Below are positions 246 to 27,769 of a stretch of DNA of 32,438 nt, one piece after another (positions within the stretch are counted from its first letter, which is position 1; each line of letters opens with the position of its first letter). The stretch is taken from IMG/VR virus record IMGVR_UViG_3300005573_001594, positions 1-32,438 of that record. One strand, written 5' to 3'. Position numbers and translations under genes: made by a program. The notes under the pieces are model-generated. The model did no database searches, was not told the origin of the DNA, and was given only the letters and a program-made list of their open reading frames with translations. The stretch is from a virus. Its lineage: Duplodnaviria; Caudoviricetes.

Positions 246-746
246 ATGGACCTGAACGTCGGCAAAGAGGTCGCCGCGCTGCAGCGGCTGACCGTCAAGG
301 AACTGCGGGCGAGGTACGCCGAGGTCTTCGGCGAAGAGACCCTCGCCCAGAACCGGACCTGGCTCGTCAAGCGCATCGCCTGGCGGCTGCAAGCGCTGGC
401 CGAGGGCGACCTGTCCGAGCGTGCTCGCCGCCGCGCCGCCGAGCTGGCCAACGACGCCAACCTCCGCATGAACCCGCCCGCCGCCAAGCCGGTCACTGCC
501 ACAGCCGAGACCATGACCAGGACGCGCTCGCTGCGCTTCCAGCCGGACGACCGTCTGCCCCCGCCCGGCACAGTCATCACCCGGCGGTACAAGGGCGAGG
601 TGCTGCAGGTGAAGGTTCTGCCGCAGGGCTTCGAATATGAGGGCGAGGTCTACGGCTCGCTCAGCGCCGTGGCCAGGGCGATCACCGGCTCGCACTGCAA
701 CGGCTACCTCTTCTTCCGCCTGGGCGAGAAGGGAGGTGACGCATGA
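246..746 (+). CDS. DUF2924 domain protein
   Basis: [11 protein letters not shown]...[11 protein letters not shown]...[10 protein letters not shown]...[20 protein letters not shown]...NGYLFF. AAGGAG RBS upstream; ATGA overlap with the recombinase. Confidence 0.9.
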
Positions 747-1120
747 AGCGGAATCACAGGAACGGGACGCCAGCGACGCTGCCGATCGTCCGCTGCGCCG
801 TCTACACCCGCAAGTCCACCGAAGAGGGCCTGGAGCAGGAGTTCAACTCGCTCGACGCCCAGCGCGAGGCCGGCGAGGCGTTCATCAAGAGCCAGACCGG
901 CGAGGGCTGGACGTGCCTGCCCGACCGCTATGACGACGGCGGCTTTACCGGCGGCAACATGGAGCGGCCCGCGCTCCAGCGACTCCTGGCCGACATCGAG
1001 GCGGGCAAGATCGACTGCGTGGTCGTCTACAAGGTGGACCGCCTGCCGACTAAGGTCGCCTATGTCGGCAAGGTCCGCTACAAGGATGAGGTTGGGTGCA
1101 GCCAACTTCTCTGGGGGTAG
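743..1120 (+). pseudogene. Large serine recombinase (integrase), internally deleted and 3'-truncated
   Basis: Catalytic domain RCAVYTRKS...SLDAQR...[19 protein letters not shown]...VVVYKVDRL jumps directly to a recombinase-domain-like fragment ([12 protein letters not shown]), then ends in a MITE. Only 125 aa. Confidence 0.85.
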
Positions 1121-1197
1121 GGTCTGAACCCGGTCATTTTCTGCCTGGACGGGCCGAAAACCCCGCCCCAAAGCTCCCATAGAAGTTGGCTACACCC
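1094..1197. mobile_element. 104-bp MITE / internally deleted IS remnant
   Basis: 24-bp terminal inverted repeats GGGTGCAGCCAACTTCTCTGGGGG / CTCCCATAGAAGTTGGCTACACCC (3 mismatches), flanked by 8-bp direct repeats ATGAGGTT (1086-1093) and ATGGGGTT (1198-1205). Confidence 0.75.
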
Positions 1198-1258
1198 ATG
1201 GGGTTGGCGACTTTTCAAAGCTCTGGATTTTTCGCGGAAATGTCGTTAAACTACGGTC

Positions 1259-2218
1259 ATGAATCCACCAATCGCTTTCTTCGCACTTGGGTTCCAGCAC
1301 GTCCAGATCGGGCAATCGCTGCTTATTCACGCTGATTGCCTGGAGTGGCTTCGCCGCGCGCCGGAAACGAGTATTCACGCGATTGTGACCGACCCTCCCT
1401 ACGGTATCAAGGAGTATGATAATGACCAGTTGAAAAAACGGGCCAACGGCAATGGGGGTGTGTGGCGTATCCCGCCGTCTTTTGATGGGCATGAACGGGC
1501 CCCCCTGCCGCGCTTCACGGCCCTTGATGACAAGGACCGTGAACGCATGCGCCAGTTCTTTGAAGAATGGTCACGTTTGGTTCGTCGCGTCCTGCTTCCT
1601 GGTGCGCACGTCTTTATTGCCACGAACGCATTCATTGCGCAATTGCTCTATGAGGCTGTCGTCGCAGGAGGACTAGAATTTCGCGGACAAGTCATCCGCT
1701 TAGTGCGCACACTTCGCGGTGGTGATCGACCCAAAAATGCCGAAGGCGAGTATCCGAACGTCTGCTCACTGCCGAAAGGATGCTATGAACCGTGGGGGCT
1801 TTTTCGCAAGCCACTGCCAGCGAGCATGACCGTTAAAGAATGTTTGCGTCGTTTTCAAACCGGGGGCCTGCGGCGTACCGCAACGAACAAGCCCTTTGAA
1901 GATGTCATTCAAAGCGAGCGAACTCCACGACGGGAACGCCAAATTGCCGATCATCCCAGTCTGAAACCGCAATCGTTTCTCCGGCGAATCTGCCACGCTG
2001 CTTTGCCGCTAGGCGAAGGTGTCATCCTTGATCCTTTCGCTGGCAGTGGTTCAACCGTAGCAGCGGCCGAAGCGGTGGGTTTACAATCTATCGGTGTCGA
2101 ACGATTCGTTGACTATTACAAGATGGCATGTGCCGCCGTACCCCGTCTCAAACAGATCGAGGTACCCATTGTTGATTCGGAAACCGCAGCAAAGACTGGT
2201 CAACCGAGCTTATTCTGA
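1259..2218 (+). CDS. Amino (N6A/N4C) DNA methyltransferase, beta class; R-M cassette A
   Basis: IVTDPPY near the N-terminus; HPSLKP and ILDPFAGSGST near the C-terminus; lower GC than the backbone. Confidence 0.93.
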   Translation: MNPPIAFFALGFQHVQIGQSLLIHADCLEWLRRAPETSIHAIVTDPPYGIKEYDNDQLKKRANGNGGVWRIPPSFDGHERAPLPRFTALDDKDRERMRQFFEEWSRLVRRVLLPGAHVFIATNAFIAQLLYEAVVAGGLEFRGQVIRLVRTLRGGDRPKNAEGEYPNVCSLPKGCYEPWGLFRKPLPASMTVKECLRRFQTGGLRRTATNKPFEDVIQSERTPRRERQIADHPSLKPQSFLRRICHAALPLGEGVILDPFAGSGSTVAAAEAVGLQSIGVERFVDYYKMACAAVPRLKQIEVPIVDSETAAKTGQPSLF

Positions 2219-2956: not shown

Positions 2957-3361
2957 CAGCACCTGTTCGGCGACGAGGACTTCTTCCCCGGCGACAGCAA
3001 GTACACGCTGAAGCCGCTGCTGACCCGCGGCGAGGGAGTGCTGGCATGCGTGGACGTGCCCGGTATGGAATGGGTCCGCCTCCGAGAGGTTCACTTCTTC
3101 CTGGGCGGCCCGTCCAACGAGGTCGAGGTCCACCGGGCGGAAGATGTCTTCGAGGCATTCCGCTCGCGCGGCGGCAAGCCACCTGACGGGGCGCGGATCG
3201 TCCGCGCGGTCTTCCAGGTGAAGTTCACCGACTCCAAGCGGCCGCGCTCTGTGACGATCCGGCCGTCGAACATCGCGCACTACACCCGCGACGATGATGC
3301 GGAGTTGGTCGAGGAGTGGCTGCGCCGACGGGGGTTCATCCTTGCGGGTGCGAACACGTGA
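2957..3361 (+). pseudogene. C-terminal remnant of a prophage hypothetical gene (5' part lost)
   Basis: Backbone-like codons resume at QHLFGDEDFFPGDSKYTL; in-frame TAG at 2927; no credible start codon or RBS. Confidence 0.65.
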
Positions 3362-3374: not shown

Positions 3375-4418
3375 ATGGGACTCTGGCAAGCGCTTGAAGC
3401 GATCCCCGGCCCGGCAGCGGTGCTGGCCGAGTGGCGCCGGCTCGTGGGCGCGGAGCTGGACTTCCTCACGCCCTATCTCCAGCCGCGGCAGCGGTTGGCG
3501 GCCTCCTACCCGCGCGTGGTCGGCGGTGAGCCCACATATCCGTATGAGGTCGTCGAACACGGGCCGAACGATTTCGTCGGCATCTGCCCCGAAACCGAAG
3601 ATCGGATCGTGCTCACCCGGAACGACCTGATCGTCTACGAGCTGGACTGGCCCCTGTTCCTGGCCGACATCGCGGCCGTGCTGGGGTTCGAGCGCCGAGC
3701 AACAGACCCGGACGAACTGCCGCCGCTGACGCGCCTGGTCGGCGACTACCGGCCTGTCGCGGGCTATTCATTCTCGGCCTACCTGACCGTGCCACTGGAG
3801 TCTCGCAGCTCGACGAGCGCGGTTTGCATGCTCGTCTCGCTGAGCGACGCCGCGTTCGTCTTGTTGACGCCGACCCGGCACCGGCTGCGGCCGGACGCGC
3901 AGCAAATCCTGGAGCGGAAGAGGTGCTGCTTCCTTGCGCTGGAAGACTCCCTGGCCGCGATGGGGCCGAGGCAATGGCAGGCCACGGACGCGGCCGTTCG
4001 GGCGCTGCGCGACTTCACCGGTCTGCACGTTTCATCGACCGACGCCGACAACGGGATGGTGTTCTTCCCCACGCCGGCGGGTGCGACCTGGGCCGACCTC
4101 AGCATCCGCTTCGCCGATGGTCATTCCGTCACGGTTCGGGTCGGGGCCGCTGGTGGGACGTACCACTACGCGCAGCTTGGCATGGCCGATGGCCGCAACA
4201 CGAGGCCGACGAAGCAGTGGGAACTGCTCCAGGCACTGGCCCGGAACCACGGCGTGCTGACCTGGAAAAGCCCGGATGCCGGCCGGAAGAACAAGAAGCG
4301 GCGGGAGTTGTTGGCTCGCGACCTGAAGGCGTTCTTCCGCATCGATGGCGAGCCGATCGTGGCGACCGACGACGGCAAGGGCTGGCGGACCTGCTTCGCG
4401 CTGGAGGCGGATGGGTGA
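3375..4418 (+). CDS. Hypothetical protein with a possible C-terminal winged-helix DNA-binding domain
   Basis: AAGGAGG RBS before ATG 3375; C-terminal PTKQWELLQALARNHG...LKAFFRIDGEPI...KGWR resembles OmpR-type wHTH (inference). Confidence 0.75.
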   Translation: MGLWQALEAIPGPAAVLAEWRRLVGAELDFLTPYLQPRQRLAASYPRVVGGEPTYPYEVVEHGPNDFVGICPETEDRIVLTRNDLIVYELDWPLFLADIAAVLGFERRATDPDELPPLTRLVGDYRPVAGYSFSAYLTVPLESRSSTSAVCMLVSLSDAAFVLLTPTRHRLRPDAQQILERKRCCFLALEDSLAAMGPRQWQATDAAVRALRDFTGLHVSSTDADNGMVFFPTPAGATWADLSIRFADGHSVTVRVGAAGGTYHYAQLGMADGRNTRPTKQWELLQALARNHGVLTWKSPDAGRKNKKRRELLARDLKAFFRIDGEPIVATDDGKGWRTCFALEADG

Positions 4419-4427
4419 CGCGGACTG

Positions 4428-4455
4428 GCCCAGTGATTTTTCGCTGGGCTTTTTT
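4428..4455 (+). terminator. Rho-independent terminator
   Basis: GCCCAGTGA-TTTT-TCGCTGGGC stem (one G-U pair) followed by T6, 10 nt after the stop at 4418. Confidence 0.8.
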
Positions 4456-4712
4456 GTTGGCCCGCCGATTTTTTCCGCCTCCTCTCCGGCTCTGCATCTT
4501 CTTGTTCCACCTTCAATTGCGTCAACGCCACTCGTGAGGCTGGTTCCCGTCCCCTCGTCTGCCAGCGATTTCTCGACAGTCGGGGGCGACGGGTCTGGCG
4601 ACCGCGACAGCGATTCTTCTTTCCGCAACCGCGGGCCAAGAGCCACGGGCAGTATTCACGCCGGACCTGTCGCCCGTGGGCTACCTTTGGCCCCGACCTT
4701 TGGAGGTCCGGC

Positions 4713-5042
4713 ATGCCAATCCCCATGTCCAAGGCAGCTCTGTCTCCGGCCCGGCGCCGGCTGGTCGAGCTGCTCCAGCAACTCAACTTCGGCCGCGTGG
4801 AGGGCCTGAGCTTCCTCGACGGCGACCCAATCTTCGACCCGCCGCCGCGCCTCGTGCGCGAGGTCAAGTTCGGCGGTGAGAACGGCCCGCGACCCGAAGC
4901 CGCCGCGGCCGACTTCCCGCTGAAGTCTCAACTCGTCGAGCTGTTCCAGTACTTCGACGAGATCGGTGACGGCACCATCGACGTGCTGGAGATCAAGCAC
5001 GGTCTGCCCTTCCGCATGGTCGTCGCGGAGGCCGCCGCCTGA
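4713..5042 (+). CDS. Prophage hypothetical protein
   Basis: GGAGGT RBS; 109 aa; clean backbone codon usage. Confidence 0.8.
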   Translation: MPIPMSKAALSPARRRLVELLQQLNFGRVEGLSFLDGDPIFDPPPRLVREVKFGGENGPRPEAAAADFPLKSQLVELFQYFDEIGDGTIDVLEIKHGLPFRMVVAEAAA

Positions 5043-5241
5043 CCGCGGGCTCGGCCCCCGCTCGGACAACAGCGTTCTTTCCACCCATCACCTGACATTT
5101 TGCCGGCCGCGCAGCGGAGGCGATTGTGGGCGACGCCGATTCTGGCGTACCGCGCATCGCCTCCGCTTCGCGTTGGCTTGCCTCTCCTCGCCGGTCGTCG
5201 TGGCCCACGCCTGCTCCTCCGCGGCCGGGAGGAGCTTACTT

Positions 5242-5781
5242 GTGATTCACGACGACAAGATCGTTCTCGACCGTTTCTGCTGGGGCATCATCCGGCGCAA
5301 GGCCCGGCAGATGGTCGGCCACGCCGGGATCAAAGAACAAGACCATGAAGACCTCGTGCAGGAGCTGATGCTCCGGCTGCTCAGGAGCCTGCGGCTGTTC
5401 GACGCTGCCCAGGCCGACCGCAAGTCCTTCGTCACCGCGGTCGTCGAGCGCAATGCTGCCAAGATCCTCCGGGACCGGCGGGCCAAGAAGCGCAATGGCG
5501 GCCGGGTCGAGTCGCTCGATGTGCTGCTGGAGAACCTGGACGAGGAGCCGCCCGACCTGGCAGTCGATGACCACGCGGCCGAGCAAGCCGACCTAGCCAT
5601 CGACGTTGCAGACCTGCTCGCCCGGCTGCCGGCCGAGCTGCGCGACCTGGCCGAGCGGCTCAAGACGCAGACGCTGTCGCAGGTCGCGCGGGATATGGGC
5701 ATTCCGCGCTCGACACTACAGCGCCGCGTCGCGCGCCTGCGGCGGCACTTCGAGGATGCCGGGCTGCGGAATTATTGCTGA
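5242..5781 (+). CDS. Phage-encoded sigma-70/ECF-like sigma factor
   Basis: Region-2-like EDLVQELMLRLL...FD...SFVTAVVERN and region-4 HTH LPAELRDLAERLKTQTLSQVARDMGIPRSTLQRR. GTG start at 5242 after GGAGGAG. Confidence 0.85.
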   Translation: MIHDDKIVLDRFCWGIIRRKARQMVGHAGIKEQDHEDLVQELMLRLLRSLRLFDAAQADRKSFVTAVVERNAAKILRDRRAKKRNGGRVESLDVLLENLDEEPPDLAVDDHAAEQADLAIDVADLLARLPAELRDLAERLKTQTLSQVARDMGIPRSTLQRRVARLRRHFEDAGLRNYC

Positions 5782-5853
5782 GCCGTGCGTCAATTCCGCC
5801 GCCAACTGGAAAGCTCTTCCTGTAGGGAGCTGTTTCCTCGCCAAGAGGCCGCG

Positions 5854-6159
5854 ATGACGAAGGAACTCTACCGCTACGCTTTCCACCCGCACGTGCCGCT
5901 CGAAGAGATCGCGGCCTCACTTCTCCTGGCGGTCTGGGGCGCCGTCAATCTGCACGGCGAAAACCGCGTTGCGGCCGACGCGGCCCACTCCCTGGACCCG
6001 AACCGGCGTGCCTGCGTCATCGACGCGGGCACGCCGGCCGGCCGCGACGTCAACCGCCTGTTCGCCCACTTCGTCCGCCGCGAGTTGAGCGCGGACTGCT
6101 ACCGGGTGGACCGCATCGTTGCCGATCCGAACCACACGACCGACGAGGCACACGCATGA
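5854..6159 (+). CDS. Hypothetical protein
   Basis: ATG 5854 after AGAGG; ATGA overlap with the next gene. Confidence 0.75.
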   Translation: MTKELYRYAFHPHVPLEEIAASLLLAVWGAVNLHGENRVAADAAHSLDPNRRACVIDAGTPAGRDVNRLFAHFVRRELSADCYRVDRIVADPNHTTDEAHA

Positions 6160-7004
6160 ACCAACCTCTGGCCTGGAAGCGCTCGAAGAACGGCGACAGT
6201 GGCCGGCTCGATCCGCTGGCGTTCCTGATCCGCGAGCCGGCCGAAGTGTACCACGCGAAATCCAAGGAGCACCTGACCAGCCACGCCCTGGCCGACTTCC
6301 GTGAGGACCCGCTCTTGTATCGCAAGCGGCAGCTCGGCCTGGTCGTCGAGGAAGACCGGCCCGCCTTCCAGGTCGGCCGGGCCGCGCACACGCTGATCCT
6401 CGAAGGGCGTGACGCCTACCGGCGGCAGTACGCCTTCGGCGGTCCAACCAACCCGGCGACCGGCAAGCTCTTCGACAGCCGCAGTAAGGCCTACCAGGAG
6501 TGGGCCGAGCGCCAGGCCAAGCCAGTGCTGACCGACCGCCAGGCGGCCCTGATCGAAGAGCTGGCCGCCGCCGTCCAGCGCCATCCCGTCGCCAGCGAAC
6601 TGCTCGCCGAGGGCGTGCCGGAGGGCGTCGTCCGCCGCGACTACCGCGGCGTTCCCTGCCAGGCCAGGTTCGACTGGCTCAATCCTGACAAAGGTCTCGT
6701 CGATCTCAAGACCTGCGACCACCTCAAGTACCTCGAAGCCGACGCTCGCTCGTTCGGCTACCTGCACCAGCTCGCCTTCTACCGCGCCCTCCTGGCGCTC
6801 CAGACCGGCGAAGTGCTCCCGGTCTACCTGATCGCCGTCGAGAAGCGGGAACCTTATCGCTGCGGCGTCTGGCGGATCGACCCCAACGTCCTGGCCGTCG
6901 CGGAGCAGGACAACGAGGCCGCCCTGGAGCGCCTGGTGCGCTGCCGGCAGCTTGACCACTGGCCGACTGGCTACGAGGAACTGCGCGTTTTCGACCACAT
7001 TTGA
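6156..7004 (+). CDS. PD-(D/E)xK exonuclease, RecE/DUF3799-like
   Basis: FQVGRAAHTLILEG...PEGVV...CQARFDWL...LVDLKT...YLHQLAFY...IAVEKREPY. Confidence 0.88.
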   Translation: MNQPLAWKRSKNGDSGRLDPLAFLIREPAEVYHAKSKEHLTSHALADFREDPLLYRKRQLGLVVEEDRPAFQVGRAAHTLILEGRDAYRRQYAFGGPTNPATGKLFDSRSKAYQEWAERQAKPVLTDRQAALIEELAAAVQRHPVASELLAEGVPEGVVRRDYRGVPCQARFDWLNPDKGLVDLKTCDHLKYLEADARSFGYLHQLAFYRALLALQTGEVLPVYLIAVEKREPYRCGVWRIDPNVLAVAEQDNEAALERLVRCRQLDHWPTGYEELRVFDHI

Positions 7005-7019
7005 TCCGAGGAACCGACC

Positions 7020-7790
7020 ATGAGTCTCCTGGCACAAGTCCAGAGCGGCAAGCGGGCGGCCCCCCGGCGCGTGCTGCTCTACGGCACCCACGGCATCGGC
7101 AAATCGACCTTCGGCGCCGGCAGCGACCGGCCCGTGTTCGTCCAGACCGAGGACGGCCTGGGCGAGATCGACTGCGACAAGTTCCCACTGGCCCTGAGCT
7201 ACTCTGACGCGCTGAAGGCACTGGAAGCTCTCTACACCGAGCAACATCCCTACCGCACGGTGGTTGTCGATTCGCTCGACTGGATGGAACGGTTGATCTG
7301 GGCCGAGGTCTGCCGGCAGCGCTCGGTCGAGAACATCGAGGACATCGGCTACGGCAAGGGCTATGTCTTCGCCCTGACATCGTGGCGCGAGTTCCTCACC
7401 GGCCTGGACGCCCTGCGCAACGACCGCGGCATGACCGTCGTGCTGATCGCCCACTCGCGCATCGAACGCTTCGAGAACCCCGAGACCGACAGCTACGACC
7501 GCTACGTGCCAAGATTGCACAAGCTGGCCTCGCAGATCATCCAGGAATGGTGCGACGAGGTGCTGTTCGCCACCTACAAGGTCTACACCAAGCAGACCGA
7601 CGAGGGCTTCAGTCGCAAGAAGACCAAGGGCATCGGCACCGGCGAGCGCGTCCTGTACACGACCGAGCGCCCCTCCCACGTCGCCAAGAATCGCCTGGGC
7701 CTTCCCGACGAGCTGCCGCTCGACTGGCACGCCTACGCTTCCTTCTTCCACCAACCCCACACGCAGAACGGAGGACTGACCCATGGCTGA
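7020..7790 (+). CDS. AAA_24 NTP-binding protein (Sak4-like recombinase)
   Basis: Walker A GTHGIGKST, Walker B VVVDSLD, LIAHS and AKNR motifs; lies between the exonuclease and DUF669. Confidence 0.88.
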   Translation: MSLLAQVQSGKRAAPRRVLLYGTHGIGKSTFGAGSDRPVFVQTEDGLGEIDCDKFPLALSYSDALKALEALYTEQHPYRTVVVDSLDWMERLIWAEVCRQRSVENIEDIGYGKGYVFALTSWREFLTGLDALRNDRGMTVVLIAHSRIERFENPETDSYDRYVPRLHKLASQIIQEWCDEVLFATYKVYTKQTDEGFSRKKTKGIGTGERVLYTTERPSHVAKNRLGLPDELPLDWHAYASFFHQPHTQNGGLTHG

Positions 7791-8244
7791 CCTGCACGGT
7801 TTCAACGCGAACGAAGTCGATCCGACGACCGACCTGGAGCCGATCCCCGCCGGCAAGTACCTGGCGATGATCACCGACAGTGAGATGAAGCCGACCAAGA
7901 ACGGCGACGGCCGCTACCTGCAGCTGACCTTCCAGATCCTGGAAGGTCCGTGCAAAGGCCGCTTCGTCTGGGCGCGGCTGAACCTGCACAACCCCAACGA
8001 GACGGCGGTGAAGATCGCGCGGGCGGAGCTGTCGGCGATCTGCCGGGCGGTGGGCGTGCTGACGCCCAGGGACAGCTGCGAGCTACACAACCTGCCCTTG
8101 GTGATCACGGTCAAGCTGAAGAAGCGCGAGGACACCGGCGAGATCGCCAACGAGATCAAGGGCTACAGCAAGAAGGAAGCACCGGCGTTGGCGACCAGCG
8201 CGCAGCCGCAGGCCAACAGTACGCCCCTGTGGAGGCGTATGTAA
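7783..8244 (+). CDS. DUF669 phage ssDNA-binding-like protein
   Basis: PIPAGKY...SEMKPTKNGDGRYLQLTFQILEG...NEIKGY, with a PxW tail. Confidence 0.85.
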   Translation: MADLHGFNANEVDPTTDLEPIPAGKYLAMITDSEMKPTKNGDGRYLQLTFQILEGPCKGRFVWARLNLHNPNETAVKIARAELSAICRAVGVLTPRDSCELHNLPLVITVKLKKREDTGEIANEIKGYSKKEAPALATSAQPQANSTPLWRRM

Positions 8245-8291
8245 TGTTCAAGGTCGATCTATCCTACCTGCTCAAGGTCAACCACTTCTGA
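8244..8291 (+). pseudogene. Decayed 5' stub of a RusA-like Holliday junction resolvase
   Basis: TAATG coupling to DUF669; MFKVDLSYLLKVNHF* resembles the RusA start MxxxxLPYPPSVNHYW; expected gene position. Confidence 0.5.
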
Positions 8292-8296
8292 CAGCA

Positions 8297-9583: not shown

Positions 9584-10365
9584 TTCATCAGACCTCGCAG
9601 GAGTGTGATGACTGGCTTACGGAAATCTTCCCGATTACGCTTCAAGAAGTCATAGAAGTCAAACCCAGAACAGGTCTTCACGGCGTCGTAGGCTTCGATG
9701 CCTTGCTTGATGACCCACACGCTTTTGTATCGGCTGATGATGCCAGGATTGCTTTGATTGCAGAACAACGGCATGACAGGCAAGATACCGCTCAGAAGCA
9801 AGTGCCTTGCCATCGCCTCATCCGCCTGGGTTCGTTTGCTGTCGCCGGTCTGGTAGCAGTGTCGAACTTCCATGCCGACGCCGACGAGTGTGATGTTCGG
9901 CGTGGCGGTGAGCTTAGCGACTTCGGCCTTACAATACTCCGACACTCGCTTTCGGGATTCCGAATCGAGCCGATCAAACTGCAGGTGGGCATCGACGCTC
10001 CTGGTTTCTTCCTCATCTCCGCTACGGATGATCGTGCTGTATGTCACGTCGGTCGGCGATTGGTTCAACGATTTCATGAAGATCGTCTTGACGCAGGCTT
10101 CGTAGATGTCTCCGATCTTCCGGTGAATGCTGGTAACCGTGCCCCCAGCAAGGGTAGCGCCAAGGTATTCCTCGGCGTCCAGACCGAAAATGCTGAACAC
10201 GGGGTCTTTCTGATACGCAAGAAGGAGCTTGTCCCGAGTTCCCCTCTTCTTGATCGGCCCCGAAACATACGCGGCGAGTTTCGCCAGATGCTCCATCGTC
10301 AAGTTGTAGAGCAGCTTCTCAAGTTCTTCACGCACATCTGGCACTTTTCGTCCTTGCTTCGTCAT
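9580..10365 (-). CDS. Putative type II restriction endonuclease; R-M cassette B
   Basis: 261 aa, translationally coupled to the MTase; GGTVTSIHRKIGDIYE...VDAHL...MEVRHCYQTGDSKR fits a variant PD-(D/E)xK nuclease. Confidence 0.7.
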   Translation of the reverse strand: MTKQGRKVPDVREELEKLLYNLTMEHLAKLAAYVSGPIKKRGTRDKLLLAYQKDPVFSIFGLDAEEYLGATLAGGTVTSIHRKIGDIYEACVKTIFMKSLNQSPTDVTYSTIIRSGDEEETRSVDAHLQFDRLDSESRKRVSEYCKAEVAKLTATPNITLVGVGMEVRHCYQTGDSKRTQADEAMARHLLLSGILPVMPLFCNQSNPGIISRYKSVWVIKQGIEAYDAVKTCSGFDFYDFLKRNREDFRKPVITLLRGLMK

Positions 10366-15180: not shown

Positions 15181-15184
15181 CAAG

Positions 15185-19156: not shown

Positions 19157-20476
19157 CTATGGGCGATAGGGACGCAGCAAAGCACTCAACCCGTTCTCGA
19201 AGGTGTCGCACTGAAACTGTTCAGGTGGTTCGGCATTGGGTAGCTGGTACGTCTCGGGTTGATTTGGCCAGGTAAACGGTAGGACGAGTTGGTGTCCCAA
19301 TTGATCTTGAAGGAGAAATCGAGTCGAATGGAGAGCCATAAACCAGGGAGTGTGGGCACAGCGGGTGAAGATCGGCACAACCACAACGGAACGGGCCAGT
19401 TGGGATCCCGCTTGCCTCAACCGATAAGTATTCACGTCCAGCTCGCGCCGGTCCACGTTTGCCGATTTACATTCGAGATGAAACAAGATACCGTTCTTAA
19501 GCACTATCAAAATATCAAACTCGGCATCAACGTTCTGAGGTTGGGTTTCCCGTGCAATTTTCACCCCTGTCCAGACCGATTGCACCGCTGGGTGCGGGTT
19601 CTGTTCCAGCCAGCCCCTCACTCGTCGAGCCACGGCACGTTCGAGCGAATCGCCGATGCGTGCGGATGGCTGCTCGACTCCAGCGGATCGAAGCGCGGCC
19701 GCTCGGCGGGCGTTATCCCCCAGCTTCAGCGTGCAGTTGTACGTATTCCTGAGGTTTTGCGGGTTCATAGCGTGACACAATTGCTCTAGTGTGCGTTGCC
19801 AGCGCTTGTACACTTCTGGCACAAGCTCAGACAATTCTTCAAAGCGAACGCGTTGTTCCTGTCCCGAAACAGATGCCCATTCATAATGTTGAGTGTGCAA
19901 CTGGTATGTGTATTGCTCATCCACACCATACCGTTCTTGACGCAGATCCGGTGGAAGCTCAGCCGGCCAGATCCGTTGCTGCATACTGCCTGTCGCAAAC
20001 GTGAAGCCATTTAGTCGCAGGATGTCTGCCAGGTCGAGTCGATGACGAGTGTAAGGGGCAACTTGAGGAGGCTCACGCAATCCCGATGGAAAAATGCCGT
20101 ACATCGCTGGGCGTTCATCACCATACAGAAGACGAGGAGCACAGGATTGAAAAGCATGGAGCAAACCAATCGGCGTGTGCTTGGTTCCGCCATTGGTCAC
20201 CAGATAGATCGCCTCGTATCGATCGGCGGCTGATTGAGCGAATAGATCCAGAGTTGTGGTTAACAGAAACGGATCGTTGACGTGGCTCAACCGAGCTACG
20301 TTTGCCGTGACGAGACCATATTGTTCCAGCACGGCGCGAGGTGCTGCGGTCCAGTCACGCTCATGGGCCTCTTGGCTTTCGACCCAAAGAATTTGATCAC
20401 CCGGTTGTGCAATCTCCAGAACGGGCGGAAGATTCGCCACCTTCTGGCCGGTCGAAACAAGCACGAACAGATTCAT
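19157..20476 (-). CDS. CARF-domain PD-(D/E)xK nuclease, Card1/Can2 (DUF1887)-like
   Basis: N-terminal VLVSTGQKVANLPP, CARF signature YLVTNGGTK, LADILRLNG, C-terminal EFDILIV...LFHLECKS. GGAGAAGG RBS; lower GC. Confidence 0.8.
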   Translation of the reverse strand: MNLFVLVSTGQKVANLPPVLEIAQPGDQILWVESQEAHERDWTAAPRAVLEQYGLVTANVARLSHVNDPFLLTTTLDLFAQSAADRYEAIYLVTNGGTKHTPIGLLHAFQSCAPRLLYGDERPAMYGIFPSGLREPPQVAPYTRHRLDLADILRLNGFTFATGSMQQRIWPAELPPDLRQERYGVDEQYTYQLHTQHYEWASVSGQEQRVRFEELSELVPEVYKRWQRTLEQLCHAMNPQNLRNTYNCTLKLGDNARRAAALRSAGVEQPSARIGDSLERAVARRVRGWLEQNPHPAVQSVWTGVKIARETQPQNVDAEFDILIVLKNGILFHLECKSANVDRRELDVNTYRLRQAGSQLARSVVVVPIFTRCAHTPWFMALHSTRFLLQDQLGHQLVLPFTWPNQPETYQLPNAEPPEQFQCDTFENGLSALLRPYRP

Positions 20477-20559
20477 TGTACCTTCTCCGGATGACTCATC
20501 TCATCCTCTGCCGTCTCAGGAGTTGCTGTGGTCGTCAGTATACGTTCGCAACTCGGTCA

Positions 20560-20806
20560 CTTCAACATCGGCAACCGGGTCAATTTGGTGGTACAACGCA
20601 AGATCGAGCCGACGGCGGGGGACCTCAATGCGCTCATGGAACGGGTCGAGGAGATCGCCGACCTCTTTCGGACGCAGCCCTTGGCGGGCTTTCCCAGCGC
20701 CCGCTGCACCGAGGTGAAGAACGAGCCGGTCTACGCGCTGGAGCACCTCGACGAGCTGCGGCAGTTCACCAGCGTCGTCACGCTGACCTTTCGGGCCTGG
20801 AGGTGA
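20560..20806 (+). pseudogene. 3' remnant of a tail-terminator-like gene
   Basis: VQRKIEP...LMERVEEIADLF...QFTSVVTLTFRAWR* in backbone codons; 5' end decayed or replaced. Left boundary approximate. Confidence 0.6.
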
Positions 20807-20809
20807 GCC

Positions 20810-21241
20810 GTGATCGGCATGACGTTCCAGGCCGCCAAGGGCGGCTTCTTCGACCGCGACAAGGTCATGCGGTCGGTGGACGCCGGCACGCGGAAGGTGC
20901 TGTCGAAGTTCGGCGCGTTCGTGCGGCAGCGGGCCAAAACCTCGATTCGAAAGCGCAAGGGGACCAGCCCGCCGGGCCAGCCGCCTCATTCGCACGTTGG
21001 CCTGCTGCGGCGGTTCATCCTGTTCGCCTACGACCCGCAGCGCAAGAGCGTCGTCATTGGCCCGACGCTGACGAAGGAAGGCTCGCCGGCGCCTCGCCTC
21101 CTGGAGCACGGCGGCGACGCGGTGATCGAGGATCGCGGCAAGGCCCGGCACGCGCGCTACCGGCCTCGGCCGTTCATGCAGCCCGCCTTCGCGGCGGAAC
21201 AACCCAGGCTGCCGGTCCTGTGGCGCGATTCGGTTCGCTAA
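20810..21241 (+). CDS. Neck/tail-completion protein (HK97 gp10-like)
   Basis: AKTSIRKR...SPPGQPPHSHVGLLR...LLEHGG...PRPFMQPAF; GGAGG RBS. Confidence 0.75.
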   Translation: MIGMTFQAAKGGFFDRDKVMRSVDAGTRKVLSKFGAFVRQRAKTSIRKRKGTSPPGQPPHSHVGLLRRFILFAYDPQRKSVVIGPTLTKEGSPAPRLLEHGGDAVIEDRGKARHARYRPRPFMQPAFAAEQPRLPVLWRDSVR

Positions 21242-21253
21242 GGAGACACGCTC

Positions 21254-21694
21254 ATGGCGGTCAAACTCGGCCTCGACGCCAAGCTGTATCGCAACACGGG
21301 CACCTTCGCTGTCCCCGTTTGGAACGAGGTCAAGAACGTCAAGGATGTGACCCTCAACCTCGAAGCCGGCGAGGCGGACGTGACCACGCGCGGCAACGCC
21401 GGCTGGAAGGCGACCGTTGCCACCCTCAAGGACGGCTCCATCGAGTTCGAGATGGTCTGGGACACGGCCGACGATGACTTTGGCGCGATCCGGGACACCT
21501 TCCTCAACCGCGGCGCGATGGAGTTCGCGGTCATGGACGGCGACATCACCGTGGCCGGGTCGCAGGGCCTGCGGGCGACCTGCATGGTGACGAACTTCAG
21601 CCGCAACGAGGCGCTGGAAGAGGCGATCACGGTCAGCGTCACGGTGAAGCCGACGTATGCCGCCAACCCACCGAGCTGGATCGTCGTGCCGTAA
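21254..21694 (+). CDS. Major tail (tube) protein
   Basis: 146-aa beta-rich acidic protein, EADVTTR...GWKATVATLKDGSIEFE; AAGGAG RBS; canonical position. Confidence 0.8.
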   Translation: MAVKLGLDAKLYRNTGTFAVPVWNEVKNVKDVTLNLEAGEADVTTRGNAGWKATVATLKDGSIEFEMVWDTADDDFGAIRDTFLNRGAMEFAVMDGDITVAGSQGLRATCMVTNFSRNEALEEAITVSVTVKPTYAANPPSWIVVP

Positions 21695-21707
21695 TCGGAG
21701 GATGCCA

Positions 21708-22001
21708 ATGAAACGATGGCCTGCCTTGGTGATTGCGCTTTTGCTGATCACGGCCGTACCTGCCCATGCGGGCGACGATCCTGAGCACAAGGCGCCGGCA
21801 GACCTTGCTGCCCAGAAGGAACTGCTTGACGAGGCCCGGAGTTTCCTGCGTGCAGCGCGGGCCAGCATGGAGAAGTGGGACAACGTTCCCGATCAGCTTG
21901 GCTCCGCCGTGTACTACGCGGGCGTCAAGGATGGAGCGCTCGGCGCGGCCGTGGCCCTGGTCGTGATCTACCTGGTTTTCCTGCATCGGAAGACGCCATG
22001 A
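21708..22001 (+). CDS. Small membrane protein (signal peptide plus C-terminal TM helix)
   Basis: MKRWPALVIALLLITAVPAHA signal; GAAVALVVIYLVFL TM segment; GGAGG RBS. Confidence 0.7.
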   Translation: MKRWPALVIALLLITAVPAHAGDDPEHKAPADLAAQKELLDEARSFLRAARASMEKWDNVPDQLGSAVYYAGVKDGALGAAVALVVIYLVFLHRKTP

Positions 22002-22615
22002 GACAAGCTTTGTTGATCTTGGTCTGCGGCGCCATCGGCGCTTCTGTCGGCGGCAACAAGGCCCCCGACGGCACCGAGGTCCACTGCGACCTGCCGGGCG
22101 ACCTGCACCGCCGCAACACCACCTCACGCGGCCAGGGCTGCTGCGTGTGGACCTCGATCCACCACGCTGCCGTCTGGCAGAACGTGCCCGCCTACGAGGA
22201 AGCGCCCAAGTGGATTCAGAATCATGGCATTCCCGGCGGGGCCTACCCCGGCGCGGTCCAGAAGCATTTGCCGCAGATGGCCAAGGAACGGGGTCAGGCT
22301 GATGCTCCATCATTCCTCAACTACGAGGGAAGCGACCTGGAACTCTTGAAGCTCGCCTGTCGGACGGGACGGATGCCGGGTGTGACCTACTCGTTCAGCC
22401 CGACCGGGCGCTACGGCGGCTCGCGGATCGCCCACATGGTGAGCCTGGTCCACGCTGATGACAGGTGGTTTGCCGTGCTGGACAACAACTACCCCGGCGC
22501 CAACTTGATCGAGTGGATGACGCCGCAGGAGTTCCAGCGGACCTGGACCGGCATGGGCGGGGGCTGGGCCGTGATCCTGCTCGCCCCGCCGCCCCCGCCC
22601 CCGCCGACGAACTGA
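21998..22615 (+). CDS. Secreted papain-fold (C39-like) cysteine peptidase, putative
   Basis: Hydrophobic N-terminus; QGCCVWTS (Cys), HMVSL (His) and VLDNN (Asp/Asn) in papain/C39 order; poly-Pro tail. Confidence 0.65.
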   Translation: MRQALLILVCGAIGASVGGNKAPDGTEVHCDLPGDLHRRNTTSRGQGCCVWTSIHHAAVWQNVPAYEEAPKWIQNHGIPGGAYPGAVQKHLPQMAKERGQADAPSFLNYEGSDLELLKLACRTGRMPGVTYSFSPTGRYGGSRIAHMVSLVHADDRWFAVLDNNYPGANLIEWMTPQEFQRTWTGMGGGWAVILLAPPPPPPPTN

Positions 22616-22623
22616 GGTGAATC

Positions 22624-23616
22624 ATGCACGCGTTTCTGCTTTCGCTGGTGATCGGCCAGTGGGTCGGGCCTGATTGCGCCACCCGTGCGGTGGAGACGCA
22701 GGCCCGGCCGGCGACCATTCGCCTGACCGTGGACCCGCCCAACGGCGAGGTCTGGCTCGACGAGCACCACGTGCAAAGCCGGGGGCCGGTCCGTGTCCTC
22801 GTCACCCCACCGCTGCGGCCCGGCTACCGCTACTCGTACCGCGTCACGGCCCGCTGGGGCACGACGGAGCAGCAATGGACGCTGGAAGTGGAAGCGGGCA
22901 AGACCAGTACGCTCACGCTCCGGCCGGACCCGGAGGGTTGTCGTCGGTGTCCGCAGGGCTGTCGTTGCCCGTGCCGGGGCAGCTGCTGTCCCTGTCGTCA
23001 GGGCCAGCCGTGCGGGGGCGATGGTTGCCACTGCACGGCGCCGACGTCGGATGACGTATTCGGCGACCTGCCGATGGTCGAGCAGGACGGCGTCAAGAAC
23101 TTCGGCATCGACCGCGCGCAGCTCGGCCAGATGCGCGAACACATCACGCTGGGCGGCCGGGAGATCACGCACGCGGAGGCCAAGCAACTTCTCGAAGCCA
23201 GCGGGCTGAGTGATGACAGCGGCAAGCTGCGGCTGACGATCATCGGCTCCGAGGCCGACCGCAAGCGCGTGCTGGACGACCTCAAAGGCCCGCTCGCTGA
23301 TCTGGCCGGCGGCTTCCTCGTGCAAAGCTATGCCCCGGACCACTGGGCCGTGGCGCGAGCGGGCTTCCACACCGCCGGCAAACCGACGCTTTACGTGCAG
23401 GCTCCGTCCGGCAAGGTGCTGCACCGCCAGGACGATTACGCCGACGGGGCCGATGGCCTGCGGCGGGCGTTGGAGGCCGTCCGCAAACCCGACCCGAACT
23501 ACGACCCGGCCAGGGACCGCGACCTGCGCCGGCCGAGCGCGGAGCTATCCACCTGGGCCGTCCTCGGCCTGGCCGGCGTGCTGTTTCTGCTCGCACTCAG
23601 AAAGGAGACCTCATGA
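22624..23616 (+). CDS. Exported TIGR03000-domain protein with a Cys-rich segment and C-terminal membrane anchor
   Basis: ATIRLTV...GEVWLD...RVLVTPPLRPGYRYSYRVTARW...VEAGK; 11-Cys stretch; WAVLGLAGVLFLLALRK tail. Confidence 0.75.
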   Translation: MHAFLLSLVIGQWVGPDCATRAVETQARPATIRLTVDPPNGEVWLDEHHVQSRGPVRVLVTPPLRPGYRYSYRVTARWGTTEQQWTLEVEAGKTSTLTLRPDPEGCRRCPQGCRCPCRGSCCPCRQGQPCGGDGCHCTAPTSDDVFGDLPMVEQDGVKNFGIDRAQLGQMREHITLGGREITHAEAKQLLEASGLSDDSGKLRLTIIGSEADRKRVLDDLKGPLADLAGGFLVQSYAPDHWAVARAGFHTAGKPTLYVQAPSGKVLHRQDDYADGADGLRRALEAVRKPDPNYDPARDRDLRRPSAELSTWAVLGLAGVLFLLALRKETS

Positions 23617-23963
23617 ACTTCGCCAACGTTCCGCAATGGGCCTGGATTCTCCTGGGGGTCGGGGCGGTGTTCTTCGCCCTCCGCACCGGCTGGCTGGAGA
23701 ACCTGTTGAAAAAGCCGGTGAGTGGAACGGCCGGTGCCACGCCAGGTGCGTCGCTGTCGCTGCTCGACAGCCTCCAGGGCTACAAGACCAAACTGGCCGC
23801 GCTGGTCGTCGCCGTGCTGGCCGCCAATGAACTCTGGCACTTCGTTCCCGAGCAGTACGTCAGCATCGTCGTGTACCTGGCCGGTGCCCTGGGCCTTTAC
23901 GGCTTGCGCGATGCCGTGGAGCGGCTGAAGCAGAAGGTGGACCAGCTTCCCGCGAAGAGTTGA
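23613..23963 (+). CDS. Holin-like membrane protein
   Basis: Three hydrophobic segments, GYKT...ALGLYGLRDA, and a charged C-terminus. Confidence 0.55.
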   Translation: MNFANVPQWAWILLGVGAVFFALRTGWLENLLKKPVSGTAGATPGASLSLLDSLQGYKTKLAALVVAVLAANELWHFVPEQYVSIVVYLAGALGLYGLRDAVERLKQKVDQLPAKS

Positions 23964-23966
23964 TCG

Positions 23967-24161
23967 ATGGAACCAACCGCCGCCCAGTTGCCGTCGCTGC
24001 GCTATCTGGTGTTCGCCGATCACAATCGGCGGCACCTCCTGGCGGCCTTCGCCGTGGACGGCGAGGCGCGGCAGTACATGCACCTGCACTGTCCGTGCTC
24101 GGGAGAGTTGGTGGATCGCCGCGAAGAAGAGCCCTCCGGCTGCATGACCCAGGAGCAGTGA
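23967..24161 (+). CDS. Small hypothetical protein
   Basis: 64-aa ORF that fills the gap between tightly packed neighbours. Confidence 0.55.
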   Translation: MEPTAAQLPSLRYLVFADHNRRHLLAAFAVDGEARQYMHLHCPCSGELVDRREEEPSGCMTQEQ

Positions 24162-24162
24162 C

Positions 24163-24663
24163 ATGCACACCTTCACTGACAACGCCGGGCGCGTTTGGAC
24201 CATCGCCGTCAACGTGGCGACGATCAAGCGTGTCCAGGGGCTGCTCAAGGTCAACCTCTACAAGCTGCTCGACGACAACTTCAAGGGCCTGGGCGAGTTA
24301 CTGGGGGACATTATCCAGCTCGTGGACGTGCTCTACTGCCTGTGCAAGGAAGAGGCTGAGGCCCGCAAGGTGAGCGACGAGGATTTCGGCCGTGCCATGT
24401 TCGGCGATGCGATCCACCAGGCCACGGAGGCCTTCCTGGAGGAGCTGATCGATTTTTTCCCCGATCCGAAGGTACGGCGCAGCCTGCGGAAGATCATCGC
24501 CGAATCCAGGAAGGTGCGCGGCCGGATGCTGGACCGGGCGGAACAGGTCCTGGAGAGCTTCGACGCCGACCGCGAAGCGAACAGGCTGCTCAGCTCATAT
24601 GGCATTGCGCCGGAATCCTCGGACTCGACCCCGGCCCTTTCACCCTCCGGGAACTCTGCCTGA
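24163..24663 (+). CDS. Tail assembly chaperone (gpG-like)
   Basis: MHTFTDNAGRVWTIAVNV...EELIDFFP; AGGAG RBS; contains slippery site TTTTTTC. Confidence 0.75.
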   Translation: MHTFTDNAGRVWTIAVNVATIKRVQGLLKVNLYKLLDDNFKGLGELLGDIIQLVDVLYCLCKEEAEARKVSDEDFGRAMFGDAIHQATEAFLEELIDFFPDPKVRRSLRKIIAESRKVRGRMLDRAEQVLESFDADREANRLLSSYGIAPESSDSTPALSPSGNSA

Positions 24664-24812
24664 TGGCCGAGGCCCGCTGCCGAGAACGCTGGGCGCATAC
24701 CAGCGCCGTCTTGGCACTTATCGCCAACGTCCATCGCGATCCGAAGCGGTCGCGGGTTTTCAAGCCGGCCGACTTCAACCCGCACCAGCGCAACGCGCCA
24801 CCTCCGACATAA
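24453..24812 (+). CDS. -1 frameshift extension of the tail chaperone (gpT-like)
   Basis: The -1 frame is open from the slippery site to TAA 24810-24812 and encodes IWHCAGILGLDPGPFTLRELCLMAEAR...DFNPH. Confidence 0.7.
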   Translation, partial: FFPRSEGTAQPAEDHRRIQEGARPDAGPGGTGPGELRRRPRSEQAAQLIWHCAGILGLDPGPFTLRELCLMAEARCRERWAHTSAVLALIANVHRDPKRSRVFKPADFNPHQRNAPPPT

Positions 24813-24867
24813 GCAAGATCGAAGAACGAACCGCAGAATGCGGCACTCAATCCCAGTGCATTGTCCC

Positions 24868-25809
24868 TCATTTGGCAACTTCACGTATAAGCTCCAGAAG
24901 GATCGTTCCCGTCTTATCCTCTGGCGCGCCCAGAAGACGATTGGCGCTGAGGTGATCTCGCCCCTCCAGCAGCTTGGATGTGGCCTTGCCTCCCGCAGCG
25001 ACGATCAATCCCGCCAGCCGCTCTGATGCCTTGTGGGATGGATTCCCGCGTTCGACAGAGACGAAAAGAAATGCCGGCCCATTCTTGACCTCTTTCGTCA
25101 CATGAGCCATAGGAGAAGCGTCCCTTTGGGCATCCTCCGAATCCCCAAAGGCTTTCTTGATGTGGTCAGCATAAAAGCCACCAGCCTTGACTTTATCGAC
25201 CAGATCGTAAGCTCCGCCACTCCAGGCGACCACGCCGCGAAGGTCGGCGGGTCGGAGCTTGACCTCGGCCAGGTATCGCGGATCGAGGGCCACGAGTGTC
25301 GCCAAGTGGCAGCCGGCAGAGTGGCCCATCAACACGATCTTCTTCGGATCGCTCCCGAACTCCGCGGCGTGCTCGCGTATCCAACCGACAGCGGCCGCCA
25401 CGTCGCTGACGTGAGCCGGATGGGTCACGGCGGGCGTGAGCCGGTAATTGATGCTGACGAAGACGATGCCGTTTTCGTTGAAAAACTTGGGCTTATAGCT
25501 CACCTCCGCCTTGTCCCGTCGGGTCCATTCCCCACCGTGGACGAAGACGACCACGGGGGCTTCCTTCACACCTTTCGGGGAATACACGTCCAGCCGCTGC
25601 TTGTCGTCCTTGCCATAGGGCACGTCAGCCCGCACCACAGTGTTCTTTGCCAGCACCGCTTTTTCAGATGGGGGTTGCTTGGGTGAATCCTTGGCTGGTT
25701 GCTTGGCCGACGGTGTGTCAGCCATGACTGGGTTGAAAGCGATTCCGGCAGCGGCAACCAGGGCAACCGCCCCGGCCAGCATCACGACTCGAAGATCGAT
25801 CCGAAACAT
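24868..25809 (-). CDS. Secreted alpha/beta hydrolase (HSL-like esterase)
   Basis: Signal peptide; LDVY, VHGG, INYRL and the GHSAG nucleophile elbow. ATG 25809 after GGAGG. Confidence 0.9.
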   Translation of the reverse strand: MFRIDLRVVMLAGAVALVAAAGIAFNPVMADTPSAKQPAKDSPKQPPSEKAVLAKNTVVRADVPYGKDDKQRLDVYSPKGVKEAPVVVFVHGGEWTRRDKAEVSYKPKFFNENGIVFVSINYRLTPAVTHPAHVSDVAAAVGWIREHAAEFGSDPKKIVLMGHSAGCHLATLVALDPRYLAEVKLRPADLRGVVAWSGGAYDLVDKVKAGGFYADHIKKAFGDSEDAQRDASPMAHVTKEVKNGPAFLFVSVERGNPSHKASERLAGLIVAAGGKATSKLLEGRDHLSANRLLGAPEDKTGTILLELIREVAK

Positions 25810-25868
25810 CTTCTCACCTCCAGAAAATCGAGAACACGGCCCGGTTCGACAAGAAACGGGGCCAAGGA

Positions 25869-26297
25869 TCACTTGACGTAGAACGGCTCCAGTTCGTTGG
25901 GCTGTGCGTGAATCTCGACCTGGAGAGGCGTTCTCTGGGGGTCCGAGTAGCGACCTTTCAGTCGATCTGGACCTGCGGGAGTTCCGTCTTCCTCCTTGAC
26001 GACGTCTGAAGGCCACAGGATGGTGACTGCATACTTTCCCGGTGGAGCACCGTCGTGCTGCACGTATGTGCTCAGGCGAAAGGCCCCGTTCTCTTCAACG
26101 GTCGCCTGAGGGAGAGGCCGACCGCTCTCCGCGGTTCCCAAGGGGTGGAACACGACCCGCGCCCCGGTCGCGGGCCTGTCCTTGTAAAGCACTATTCCCC
26201 GGACGGGGTAGACCTCCACAGGGCTTCTCTGGCTACATGATGTCAACAGCACAGCCGTAACCAAGACCACGATAGTCGCCCGAAACCTCATAACCAT
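25869..26297 (-). CDS. Planctomycete lipoprotein, carboxypeptidase-regulatory-like domain
   Basis: Lipobox LTSC; YPVRGIV..., GAFRLSTY...GAPPGKYAVTI; usual partner of DUF1559 genes. Confidence 0.85.
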   Translation of the reverse strand: MVMRFRATIVVLVTAVLLTSCSQRSPVEVYPVRGIVLYKDRPATGARVVFHPLGTAESGRPLPQATVEENGAFRLSTYVQHDGAPPGKYAVTILWPSDVVKEEDGTPAGPDRLKGRYSDPQRTPLQVEIHAQPNELEPFYVK

Positions 26298-26325
26298 CAA
26301 TCCCTCGCAGATGTGCGGCTCGGTG

Positions 26326-27261
26326 TTAGTAATCGGCGTTGACCACTTCTCCGCCCGCCCGAGTGACCAGTGCAGCTAGCGTTCGAGGGGAAGTTGCATT
26401 TGACAACATGCGAACCGACCCGTCCGCAAATGCCACGTTCGCCCCGCTCGGGTGAAAGCTGTACACCGCGAACTGGTTGAAACAATTGACGGCACACGCG
26501 GTTCCGAACCAACTCCCATCCGCCAGGGACGTCGAGATGTTGTGGGCGTTGTTGTGCGCCCAGAAGCCGAACCCATAGGTTCGCGGGTTAGCCCATGCAG
26601 GTGCACTCGTCGATCTCTGCTTGTTGGGGAGATACCAGTACGGACGGCCCGACATTTCAACCAGCAGAATCGTGTTCGAGGTGCCATCCGTCACTCCGGC
26701 GATCTTCCCCAGCGCGCCGACTTGCATGGGCGCGGTAGTGTCCGCGATCCCCGGCGGGTACAACTGGGCGTAGAGCGTGGAGTTGAACGACGCGGCTGCG
26801 GCATAGTCGGCTGTGGCTGCAGTGAATGTTGTCCCCGTTGAATCCGTCAATGTCAGTACCTGGCCGCCAACGGGACTGGAGGGACAAACTTGTACCTTGA
26901 TGACCGTACTCACAACAGGTGTTAAAGCGGGTGACTTCCAGTTGGTGCCGTTCGGGTCGAGGCCGGACGGCCAGAGATTGGCGAGGTTATCCTGCTCGAT
27001 GTACGGCAGCACGGCGGTTACCCACCCCGGCTGGTTGGCAGTCAGGTACACCGGTGGGAAACCGCCTCTTGCGCTCTCAAAGTTGTGACACGCCAGAGCG
27101 AGTTGCTTGAGGTTGTTCTGGCACTTGATGCGGTTGGCGGCCTCGCGCACTTTTTGCACGGCCGGCAGCAGCAAGCCGATCAGGACCCCGACGATGGCAA
27201 TGACGACCAACAATTCGATAAGCGTAAAACCACGCCTTTGCTCTGCCTGAGCGTAAAGCAT
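26326..27261 (-). CDS. DUF1559 prepilin-type N-terminal cleavage / H-X9-DG protein
   Basis: [67 protein letters not shown] 27261 after GAGGAG. Confidence 0.95.
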
Positions 27262-27448
27262 GACCTGACTCCTCGAGGACGACGATGACCACGCGATTAT
27301 CGCGGCACGGGAGGAGCAAATATGATGCCCAAGATTCCACACACAATTGAAGTCAAGGCAGAAAAAGGAGTTATAGCGGAACAAGGCTTAGAAGGCTGGG
27401 GGGAGCTGAATACCCAGTGACCGGGACTGGTTAGCCCGTAGCCAAGTA

Positions 27449-27769
27449 ACCCTCTTCTCCCTCACCGGCAAGGTCAACGCCGCGCCGTTCAAGGGGTTCG
27501 CGCCCGGCGAGGTGCTTTTCCAGGGCGATTCCGGCTCGCAGCGCGGCCAGGAAGACTGGGAAATCACCTTCAGCTTCGCCGCTAGCCCGAACGCGACCGG
27601 GCTGACCGTCGGCGACATCACCGGAATCGACAAGAAGGGCTGGGAATATCTCTGGGTCCGCTACCAGGACGCCGAGGACGCCGACGTGCTGGTCAAGCAG
27701 CCGGCGGCGGTCTACGTGGAGCAGGTCTACCCGTATGGGGATTTCGCGCTTTTGGGGATTGGCACCTGA
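27449..27769 (+). pseudogene. 3' remnant of a tail gene
   Basis: Backbone codons resume at TLFSLTGKVNAAPFKGFAPGEVLF; no start codon or RBS; TGATG coupling to the next gene. Confidence 0.65.

Follow-up and report, generated by a model that had tools for sequence, protein, structure and literature searches.

How does a prophage come to carry foreign genes in place of its own essential ones, and do several such exchanges in one locus share a mechanism? In this work we have examined these questions for a stretch of 32,438 nt, here called the window, which is the entire virus record IMGVR_UViG_3300005573_001594 and holds a defective lambda-like prophage of Planctomycetes. At five places, slots 1 to 5, backbone genes have given way to cargo: restriction-modification (R-M) genes in slots 1, 2 and 3, a CARF nuclease in slot 4 and an esterase/DUF1559 cluster in slot 5. 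We consider it probable that these replacements are of mixed origin, with slot 3 holding the left end and cargo of an embedded satellite and slot 4 a cassette brought by recombination. The phage family was defined by Pfam, PHROGs, PADLOC and NCBIfam scans together with 125 related viral loci. Longer records (n=22) were mapped against the window, and 252 family genomes were searched for cargo, motifs and miniature inverted-repeat transposable elements (MITEs). The intact references were G005 and G006, unbroken at slots 2-5, G003 at slots 1-3 and G110 at slots 4-5.

Mapping against the intact relatives bore out the initial annotation in that all five replacements, with their broken flanking genes and lost segments, are real. 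The breaks lie at 1093-2957, 8291-10459, 13672-16501, 19157-20570 and 24792-27447 for slots 1 to 5. Lost are most of the phage serine recombinase, c14 and the N-part of c33 (slot 1); RusA and a helicase (slot 2); the C-half of a ParB-methyltransferase, TerS, TerL, gpW and the portal 5' end (slot 3); the C-part of the capsid, the cement and head-tail joining genes (slot 4); and the tape measure (slot 5). Core genes being cut or lost at all five slots, these are replacements and not moron insertions, as had been proposed, and the count of eleven cargo genes, nine of them antisense, was correct. Because excision, packaging, head and tail-length genes are gone, the prophage would be incapable of forming particles alone. 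The GC content of the cassettes is 0.53-0.61 versus 0.668 in the backbone, and none of 124 related viral loci aligned inside any cassette, except L063 over slot 4. The cassettes of slots 1, 2, 4 and 5 measure 1866, 2170, 1467 and 2658 nt against replaced segments of 2119-2145 nt and medians of 2170, 1803 and 2536 nt, respectively; they come to 81-105% of the median replaced length, a pattern spotted post hoc, and slot 3 to about half. The near-equal lengths could be explained by double illegitimate recombination (10.1101/2023.11.22.568220) or by a limit on packaging length.

An assembly chimera is unlikely because seven of the ten junctions (2L, 3L, 3R, 4L, 4R, 5L and 5R, for left and right) are bridged in other records or runs. 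L001 is 100% identical to the window across 3L-4R and L081 across 4L-4R, and contigs of runs X2, X12 and X13, from three studies, span 2L, 3L, 4L, 4R, 5L and 5R (contigs of 4 of the 21 listed runs were examined; X2 is possibly the window's own source). Junction 2R is spanned solely by L171, again possibly the window's own source, and slot 1 was seen in the window only, without a second witness, as was an additional 441-bp microhomology deletion within the recombinase at 1044/1045. Run X12 also contains a variant of 23465-25567, about 97% identical across 5L, whose c19 arm is longer by three bases. Replacements of a similar kind were noted in the G007 record (L137), where DruA, NurA and HerA homologues take the place of the early genes between c14 and SSB (L137:11266-15331) and an ECF sigma cassette cuts the tape measure.

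The strongest result of this work is the embedded satellite of slot 3 and the series of its relics. The N-half of the ParB-methyltransferase (12706-13671, plus strand), the satellite's target gene, reads into the C-terminal peptide of a satellite recombinase and stops at 13794. The left attachment site, attL (13669-13730, plus strand), has its core GAC at 13669-13671 and an arm at 13677-13692. In the window and in L234, L066 and L074 the methyltransferase ends at an identical base, after which a shared non-phage motif and then unrelated cargo follow; L066 and L074 came from a portal scan, before any motif search. The same left break with different cargo was present in 13 other elements, a set enriched by the motif search. 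The expectation that one slot should recur with different cargo was thus borne out at slot 3; it was not at slots 2 and 5, which recur nowhere in the sample. The att motif occurred in seven viral stretches (one being the L001 record) and at 19 sites in 12 of the 252 family genomes, against one site for the reversed control. By our own reading, 14 of the 26 distinct sites, the window included, lie in the methyltransferase, seven in TerL near residue 293 and five elsewhere; five belong to complete elements, one is cut by a contig end, 11 are relics and nine are too short to judge.

What, then, is this element? The five complete copies measure 10.2-11.0 kb and have the order attL, variable cargo, sigma-type HTH protein, protease-capsid, primase, HARE-HTH protein, large serine recombinase and attR. 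AAA_25 (in the primase) and Phage_capsid_4 domains were found in the five complete copies; the window itself lacks both of these satellite genes. The recombinase has Resolvase, Recombinase and Zn-ribbon domains and is only about 25% like that of the helper phage, over one stretch; the protease-capsid is 35-37% identical to the helper's. The recombinase open reading frame (ORF) crosses attR in frame into the C-half of the target, giving fusions of 1044-1048 aa with TerL and 704-712 aa with the methyltransferase; 24 of 120 proteins among the matches listed have both recombinase and methyltransferase domains, and TerL is split at residue ~293 in L269 and L270. Serine-integrase attP sites consist of a short core flanked by inverted-repeat arms. 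Here the core is GA(C/T) at both ends, and the attL and attR arms are inverted repeats with 9-15 of 16 positions complementary. The motif encodes the end of the recombinase and is joined to the N-half of the target, a fusion visible in the window. Taken together, these features suggest that the element would be a helper-dependent satellite, with which the window's control-restriction-modification (C-R-M) genes may have arrived. These genes (13840-16314), a methyltransferase on the plus strand and a predicted restriction enzyme and a control protein on the minus strand, occupy the satellite's cargo position, and the cargo measures 2.83 kb versus 2.6-3.5 kb in complete elements. R-M cargo stands behind attL in L269 and L282, two of the six complete or near-complete copies, and others carry transglutaminase-like or Calx-beta cargo. 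The predicted endonuclease had no match to a hidden Markov model (HMM), its Atlas neighbour is named bstEII, and a promoter scan of slot 3 found none.

At the 11 relic sites helper genes restart within 3.7 kb, at varying points. The window restarts at portal residue 45 (16502-19156, plus strand: a portal without its ~44 N-terminal residues and a protease-capsid cut at residue 456 of ~661); only attL is left in it, and an attR arm was not found elsewhere in the window. The slot 3 relic likely shows one way in which dead viruses become defence islands. Three other assignments were rejected: positions 13672-13728 are not a decayed methyltransferase arm, as the same-base break and the shared arm mark a satellite end; a two-mismatch motif match in L160 lies inside c22; and L004 and L190 have no att site at 3L. 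The latter two (L004:2071-2891) carry an in-frame insertion of 820 bp a few codons past the satellite's target site, which may be intein-like. At L274:14949-17381, 344 bp separate attL from TerL residues 200-755; residues 200-292 are thus present twice, which may restore a terminase. In G125, G074 and G040, two to four attL sites each were seen, and shreds of prophage alternate there with cargo, an advanced stage of this decay.

Slot 4 has another history. Its nuclease (19157-20476, minus strand; stop codon abutting the capsid break) has CARF and PD-(D/E)xK domains (PADLOC CARF_PDDEXK, E 1e-12). The nuclease of L063 is 79.6% identical, and its cassette joins the backbone at the same points on both sides, on the left at the CARF stop codon; the terminase, gpW and portal of L063 are intact. 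Since the portals of the window and L063 fall into separate supported clades, the prediction that the same cargo with the same junctions would be found in another backbone came true here. L183 (CARF 63% identical in amino acids) retains the c6 arm and L184 (61%) a decayed capsid arm. The capsid arm of L063 is 100% identical to intact L073 and L077 and that of the window 95% to L004; for the c6 arm of the window (20571-20657, plus strand) L063 and L183 are the top two of 46, with a switch to 100% identity with L051 near 20657. This different ancestry of the arms on each side requires recombination inside a stretch of ~20 bp at the left end and one of ~90 bp at the right end, and it is likely that the cassette moved between backbones by homologous recombination. 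The tail block that follows (20658-24791, plus strand: c6 end, c8, tube, chaperone and c19 remnant) is 98.6% identical to intact L051 over 20644-22249; the tube tree also groups the window with L051, with unsettled bootstrap. A metagenome scan with the CARF gene gave two loci, both already known or identical. CARF genes without phage arms occur in five other family genomes, some adjoining type III CRISPR genes, and homologues adjoin Cas6, Cmr1 and Cas10 in three of the four neighbours scanned. CARF nucleases require a type III CRISPR signal. No source of a Cas10 signal was found among the window ORFs, and the nuclease would depend on a type III system of the host. The host is likely one of the Gemmataceae, because a Planctomycetota metagenome-assembled genome holds an exact junction match and the named CARF homologues are from Thermogemmata, Gemmata or Gemmataceae. 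At L063:3030-3950 we saw a second cassette, with an R2K ATP-grasp protein, which replaces capsid residues 36-370, again at near-equal length.

The remaining slots gave less regular pictures. At slot 1 the phage recombinase remnant (743-1092, plus strand; 530 aa in relatives) is cut at 1092 and followed by a MITE of 104 bp (1094-1197), a member of a host repeat family with terminal inverted repeats, a length of 103-120 bp, no coding capacity and matches in nine of the 252 genomes. Family members in L289, L292, L300 and L303 have 8-bp target duplications, and in the window the pair (1086-1093 and 1198-1205) matches at seven of eight bases, its left copy being the final recombinase-like phage bases. 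The claim that no cassette-wide target duplication is visible holds, since direct repeats spanning whole cassettes were not found in the window, but ends of mobile elements are present, namely attL (core and arm, 13669-13692) and this MITE with its 8-bp duplication. Since both duplication copies survive, a plain adjacent deletion by the MITE does not fit as the cause of slot 1, whereas joining at a microhomology would fit, as would insertion at a later time. The cargo (1259-2938) is a type II methyltransferase on the plus strand (HMM E 2e-95) and a convergent predicted restriction enzyme on the minus strand (E 9e-5). The C-terminal remnant of c33 (2958-3361, plus strand) starts no more than 2-3 bp from the right break in L280, the sole other broken c33 among 27 locus rows, where the cargo is another. 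Slot 2 carries a type II methyltransferase and a restriction enzyme (8297-10365, minus strand), both strong HMM matches. In its left arm, the decayed 5' end of RusA (8245-8290, plus strand), 13 of 50 conserved columns differ over 8231-8290 versus 235 of 8613 (2.7%) in the background; the cassette may therefore be older than the backbone that now surrounds it. Slot 5 holds an esterase, a small predicted lipoprotein and a DUF1559 prepilin-type protein (24868-27384, minus strand), a host-type cluster and not defence, after which the backbone restarts with the C-terminal remnant of c22 (27448-27769, plus strand). Nine rows at 5L are diverged gene ends and not breaks. Viral scans with cargo of slots 1, 2, 3 and 5 returned only the same record or non-phage contexts. 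Homologues of the R-M units and the esterase occur in 15, 10, 5 and 6 of the 252 family genomes, and no phage arms were found in their 1.5-kb flanks at the 27 and 8 loci examined. In L153/L154 (G017), where the tail region is otherwise intact, an antisense DUF1559 gene has simply been inserted behind c28, not at the position of slot 5.

How could such a mixture arise? We suppose that the satellite recombinase inserts the element at fixed bases of the helper's ParB-methyltransferase or TerL gene, and that the satellite would later excise, restoring the helper gene, and borrow the helper's terminase, portal and tail. In the window, one deletion may have removed the recombinase, attR and the helper terminase region, which would have fixed the C-R-M cargo in place and left the prophage defective. 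Slot 4 would have come by recombination through arms of 20-90 bp, carried out by RecA or by the retained exonuclease-Sak4-SSB set. At slots 1, 2 and 5 host-type DNA likely took the place of phage genes by illegitimate recombination and was afterwards passed on by homologous recombination. The net product is likely a non-mobile R-M island; its three predicted R-M units would probably defend the host and, through post-segregational killing, probably keep the locus from being lost. More tentatively, the parts may form a cycle that grounds prophages: a serine-integrase satellite, its integrase spliced to the helper's terminase or methylase, seeds cargo within that helper, and short-armed cassettes of near-wild-type length home by recombination into intact prophages that have newly arrived, killing them and stacking defence genes one slot after another. 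The homing part is well supported for slot 4 only.

Several observations weigh against the mixed origin that we prefer. At 3R we found no remains of the satellite core, and as only attL survives in the window the C-R-M genes could have arrived after the deletion. The junctions of slots 2 and 5 are shared with none of their homologues (0/8, 0/16, 0/27 and 0/26), family chromosomes hold homologues of each of the three R-M units and of the esterase with no phage arm in the 1.5-kb flanks, and only two of the ten arms are clearly decayed. The exchange with L051 could have run in either direction. The CARF gene of L063 has an internal stop, so the cassette is not always kept, which speaks against steady selection. 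Finally, excision, packaging and restriction are predictions from sequence. Could one domesticated platform, its five slots swapped by a dedicated common mechanism, then explain the locus better, as first proposed? We regard this as improbable. Recurrence at slots 1, 3 and 4, the lengths of the four non-satellite cassettes and the intact exonuclease-Sak4-SSB set would agree with it, but no motif common to the cassette ends was found and the length match was spotted post hoc. A single exchange system is unsupported: the slots go back to three origins or more, slot 3 is explained by a recombinase of its own element, and slots 2 and 5 are unique.

Ordinary vertical decay, that is, random indels in one old cryptic prophage, with junctions shared by descent and patches from superinfecting phages, likewise has little probability. 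Deletions and foreign genes do occur in many relatives, portal and CARF identity to L063 are similar (80% each), and the 441-bp microhomology deletion is an event of this type. Yet chance does not account for att sites that agree to the base in two genes, which refutes decay for slot 3; the genes that remain have their full length and in places match intact phages at 95-100% identity, and the backbones of the window and L063 are not sisters. It is very improbable that embedded satellites with other targets, eroded to their cargo, gave rise to slots 1, 2, 4 and 5 as well, given that these junctions have no att arm and that the mapped loci contain no complete element there. A chimera of several phage copies and host DNA would suit a multi-copy family and the lack of independent bridging at slot 1 and 2R, but L001, L081 and contigs of three runs, each from a different study, have identical junctions and diverged elements have homologous ones, which makes it extremely improbable.

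The backbone is intact in several parts. Its left end (1-746, plus strand) holds a 70-aa ORF and DUF2924, by comparison with relatives. A module of these two and the helper recombinase stands directly behind TerL in G004, G014, G030, L086 and L280, and G004, G015 and G025 have the early region in inverted orientation; this rearrangement recurs and may be the work of the helper recombinase. The early block (3375-8244, plus strand) encodes an intact sigma-like protein, exonuclease VIII, Sak4-like recombinase and SSB. After the helicase 3' tail, domain scans and relatives place an intact Prim-Pol/AAA primase (10460-12411, plus strand), and inverted repeats directly downstream of it (12462-12594) are a possible origin. 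The right end (28464-32438), conserved in relatives, has a long Ser/Gly-repeat ORF, a mannosyltransferase-like gene and an FkbM methyltransferase and is possibly a glycosylated tail part. Scans of the window for tRNA and Rfam families gave no match.

Defence hotspots of P2 and P4 phages sit between intact core genes. As in these hotspots (PMC9122126, PMC13586616), variable defence cargo is found here at a fixed position and swapped by recombination; there the turnover takes place in working phages, whereas in our locus the cargo has displaced core genes of a phage that is now dead, and the satellite's cargo zone is the closer analogue. With the lambdoid mosaics of De Paepe et al. 2014 (PMC3945230) our locus shares homology at the borders of exchanged pieces, tolerance of divergence and prophage remnants as donors in homology-driven exchange. 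Rad52-like recombinases and viable recombinants are described there; the phage studied here has a Sak4-like enzyme, a type absent from that text, and the exchange destroys essential genes. One defence cassette has likely crossed between phage backbones while destroying the capsid gene.

The satellite has other relatives in mechanism. PMC11389934 treats satellites inside prophages and integrative and mobilizable elements in genes of integrative and conjugative elements, where a hitcher likewise inserts into its helper, from which it separates ahead of transfer; that system is conjugative, whereas ours bears a capsid. The main text of a survey of large serine recombinases (10.1101/2021.11.05.467528) names no terminase or methyltransferase target, and its supplements may list such enzymes. 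In the literature searched, mostly without subscription papers, we found no description of a Planctomycete serine-integrase satellite. Closest are the helper-embedded phage-inducible chromosomal islands (HE-PICIs) of Enterobacterales (Tommasini, Mageeney, Williams 2023, PMC10111431), satellites inside helper prophage genes. HE-PICIs are satellite-sized (10-20 kb there, 10.2-11.0 kb here), co-oriented within a late gene of the helper, with the terminase among their targets (here at the TerL site), and have a primase and often a capsid gene of their own; integrase-target fusions are noted there as well. They have tyrosine integrases only, with int/AlpA upstream; here the enzyme is a large serine recombinase whose 3' end is split by the att site, cargo lies upstream and the recombinase downstream, and no AlpA match was obtained among the element ORFs scanned, small ORFs being covered only in part. 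Unlike in HE-PICIs, the hosts are Planctomycetes, a ParB-methyltransferase is a second target, the upstream cargo zone carries R-M genes and grounded relics are many; the terms 'serine' and 'Planctomyc' are absent from the text of that paper. If our reading is true, helper-embedded satellites had a second, independent origin, with another recombinase class in a distant phylum, and an att site inside the integrase 3' end by which integration makes integrase-terminase or integrase-methylase fusions. It also offers an integrase that can be assayed on two naturally occurring attB sites, and the relics (11 of the 26 sites) make visible how a satellite can turn into a grounded defence island, which work on prophage domestication usually only assumes. 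As HE-PICIs use tyrosine integrases in Enterobacterales, the element works like an HE-PICI without being a member of that group.

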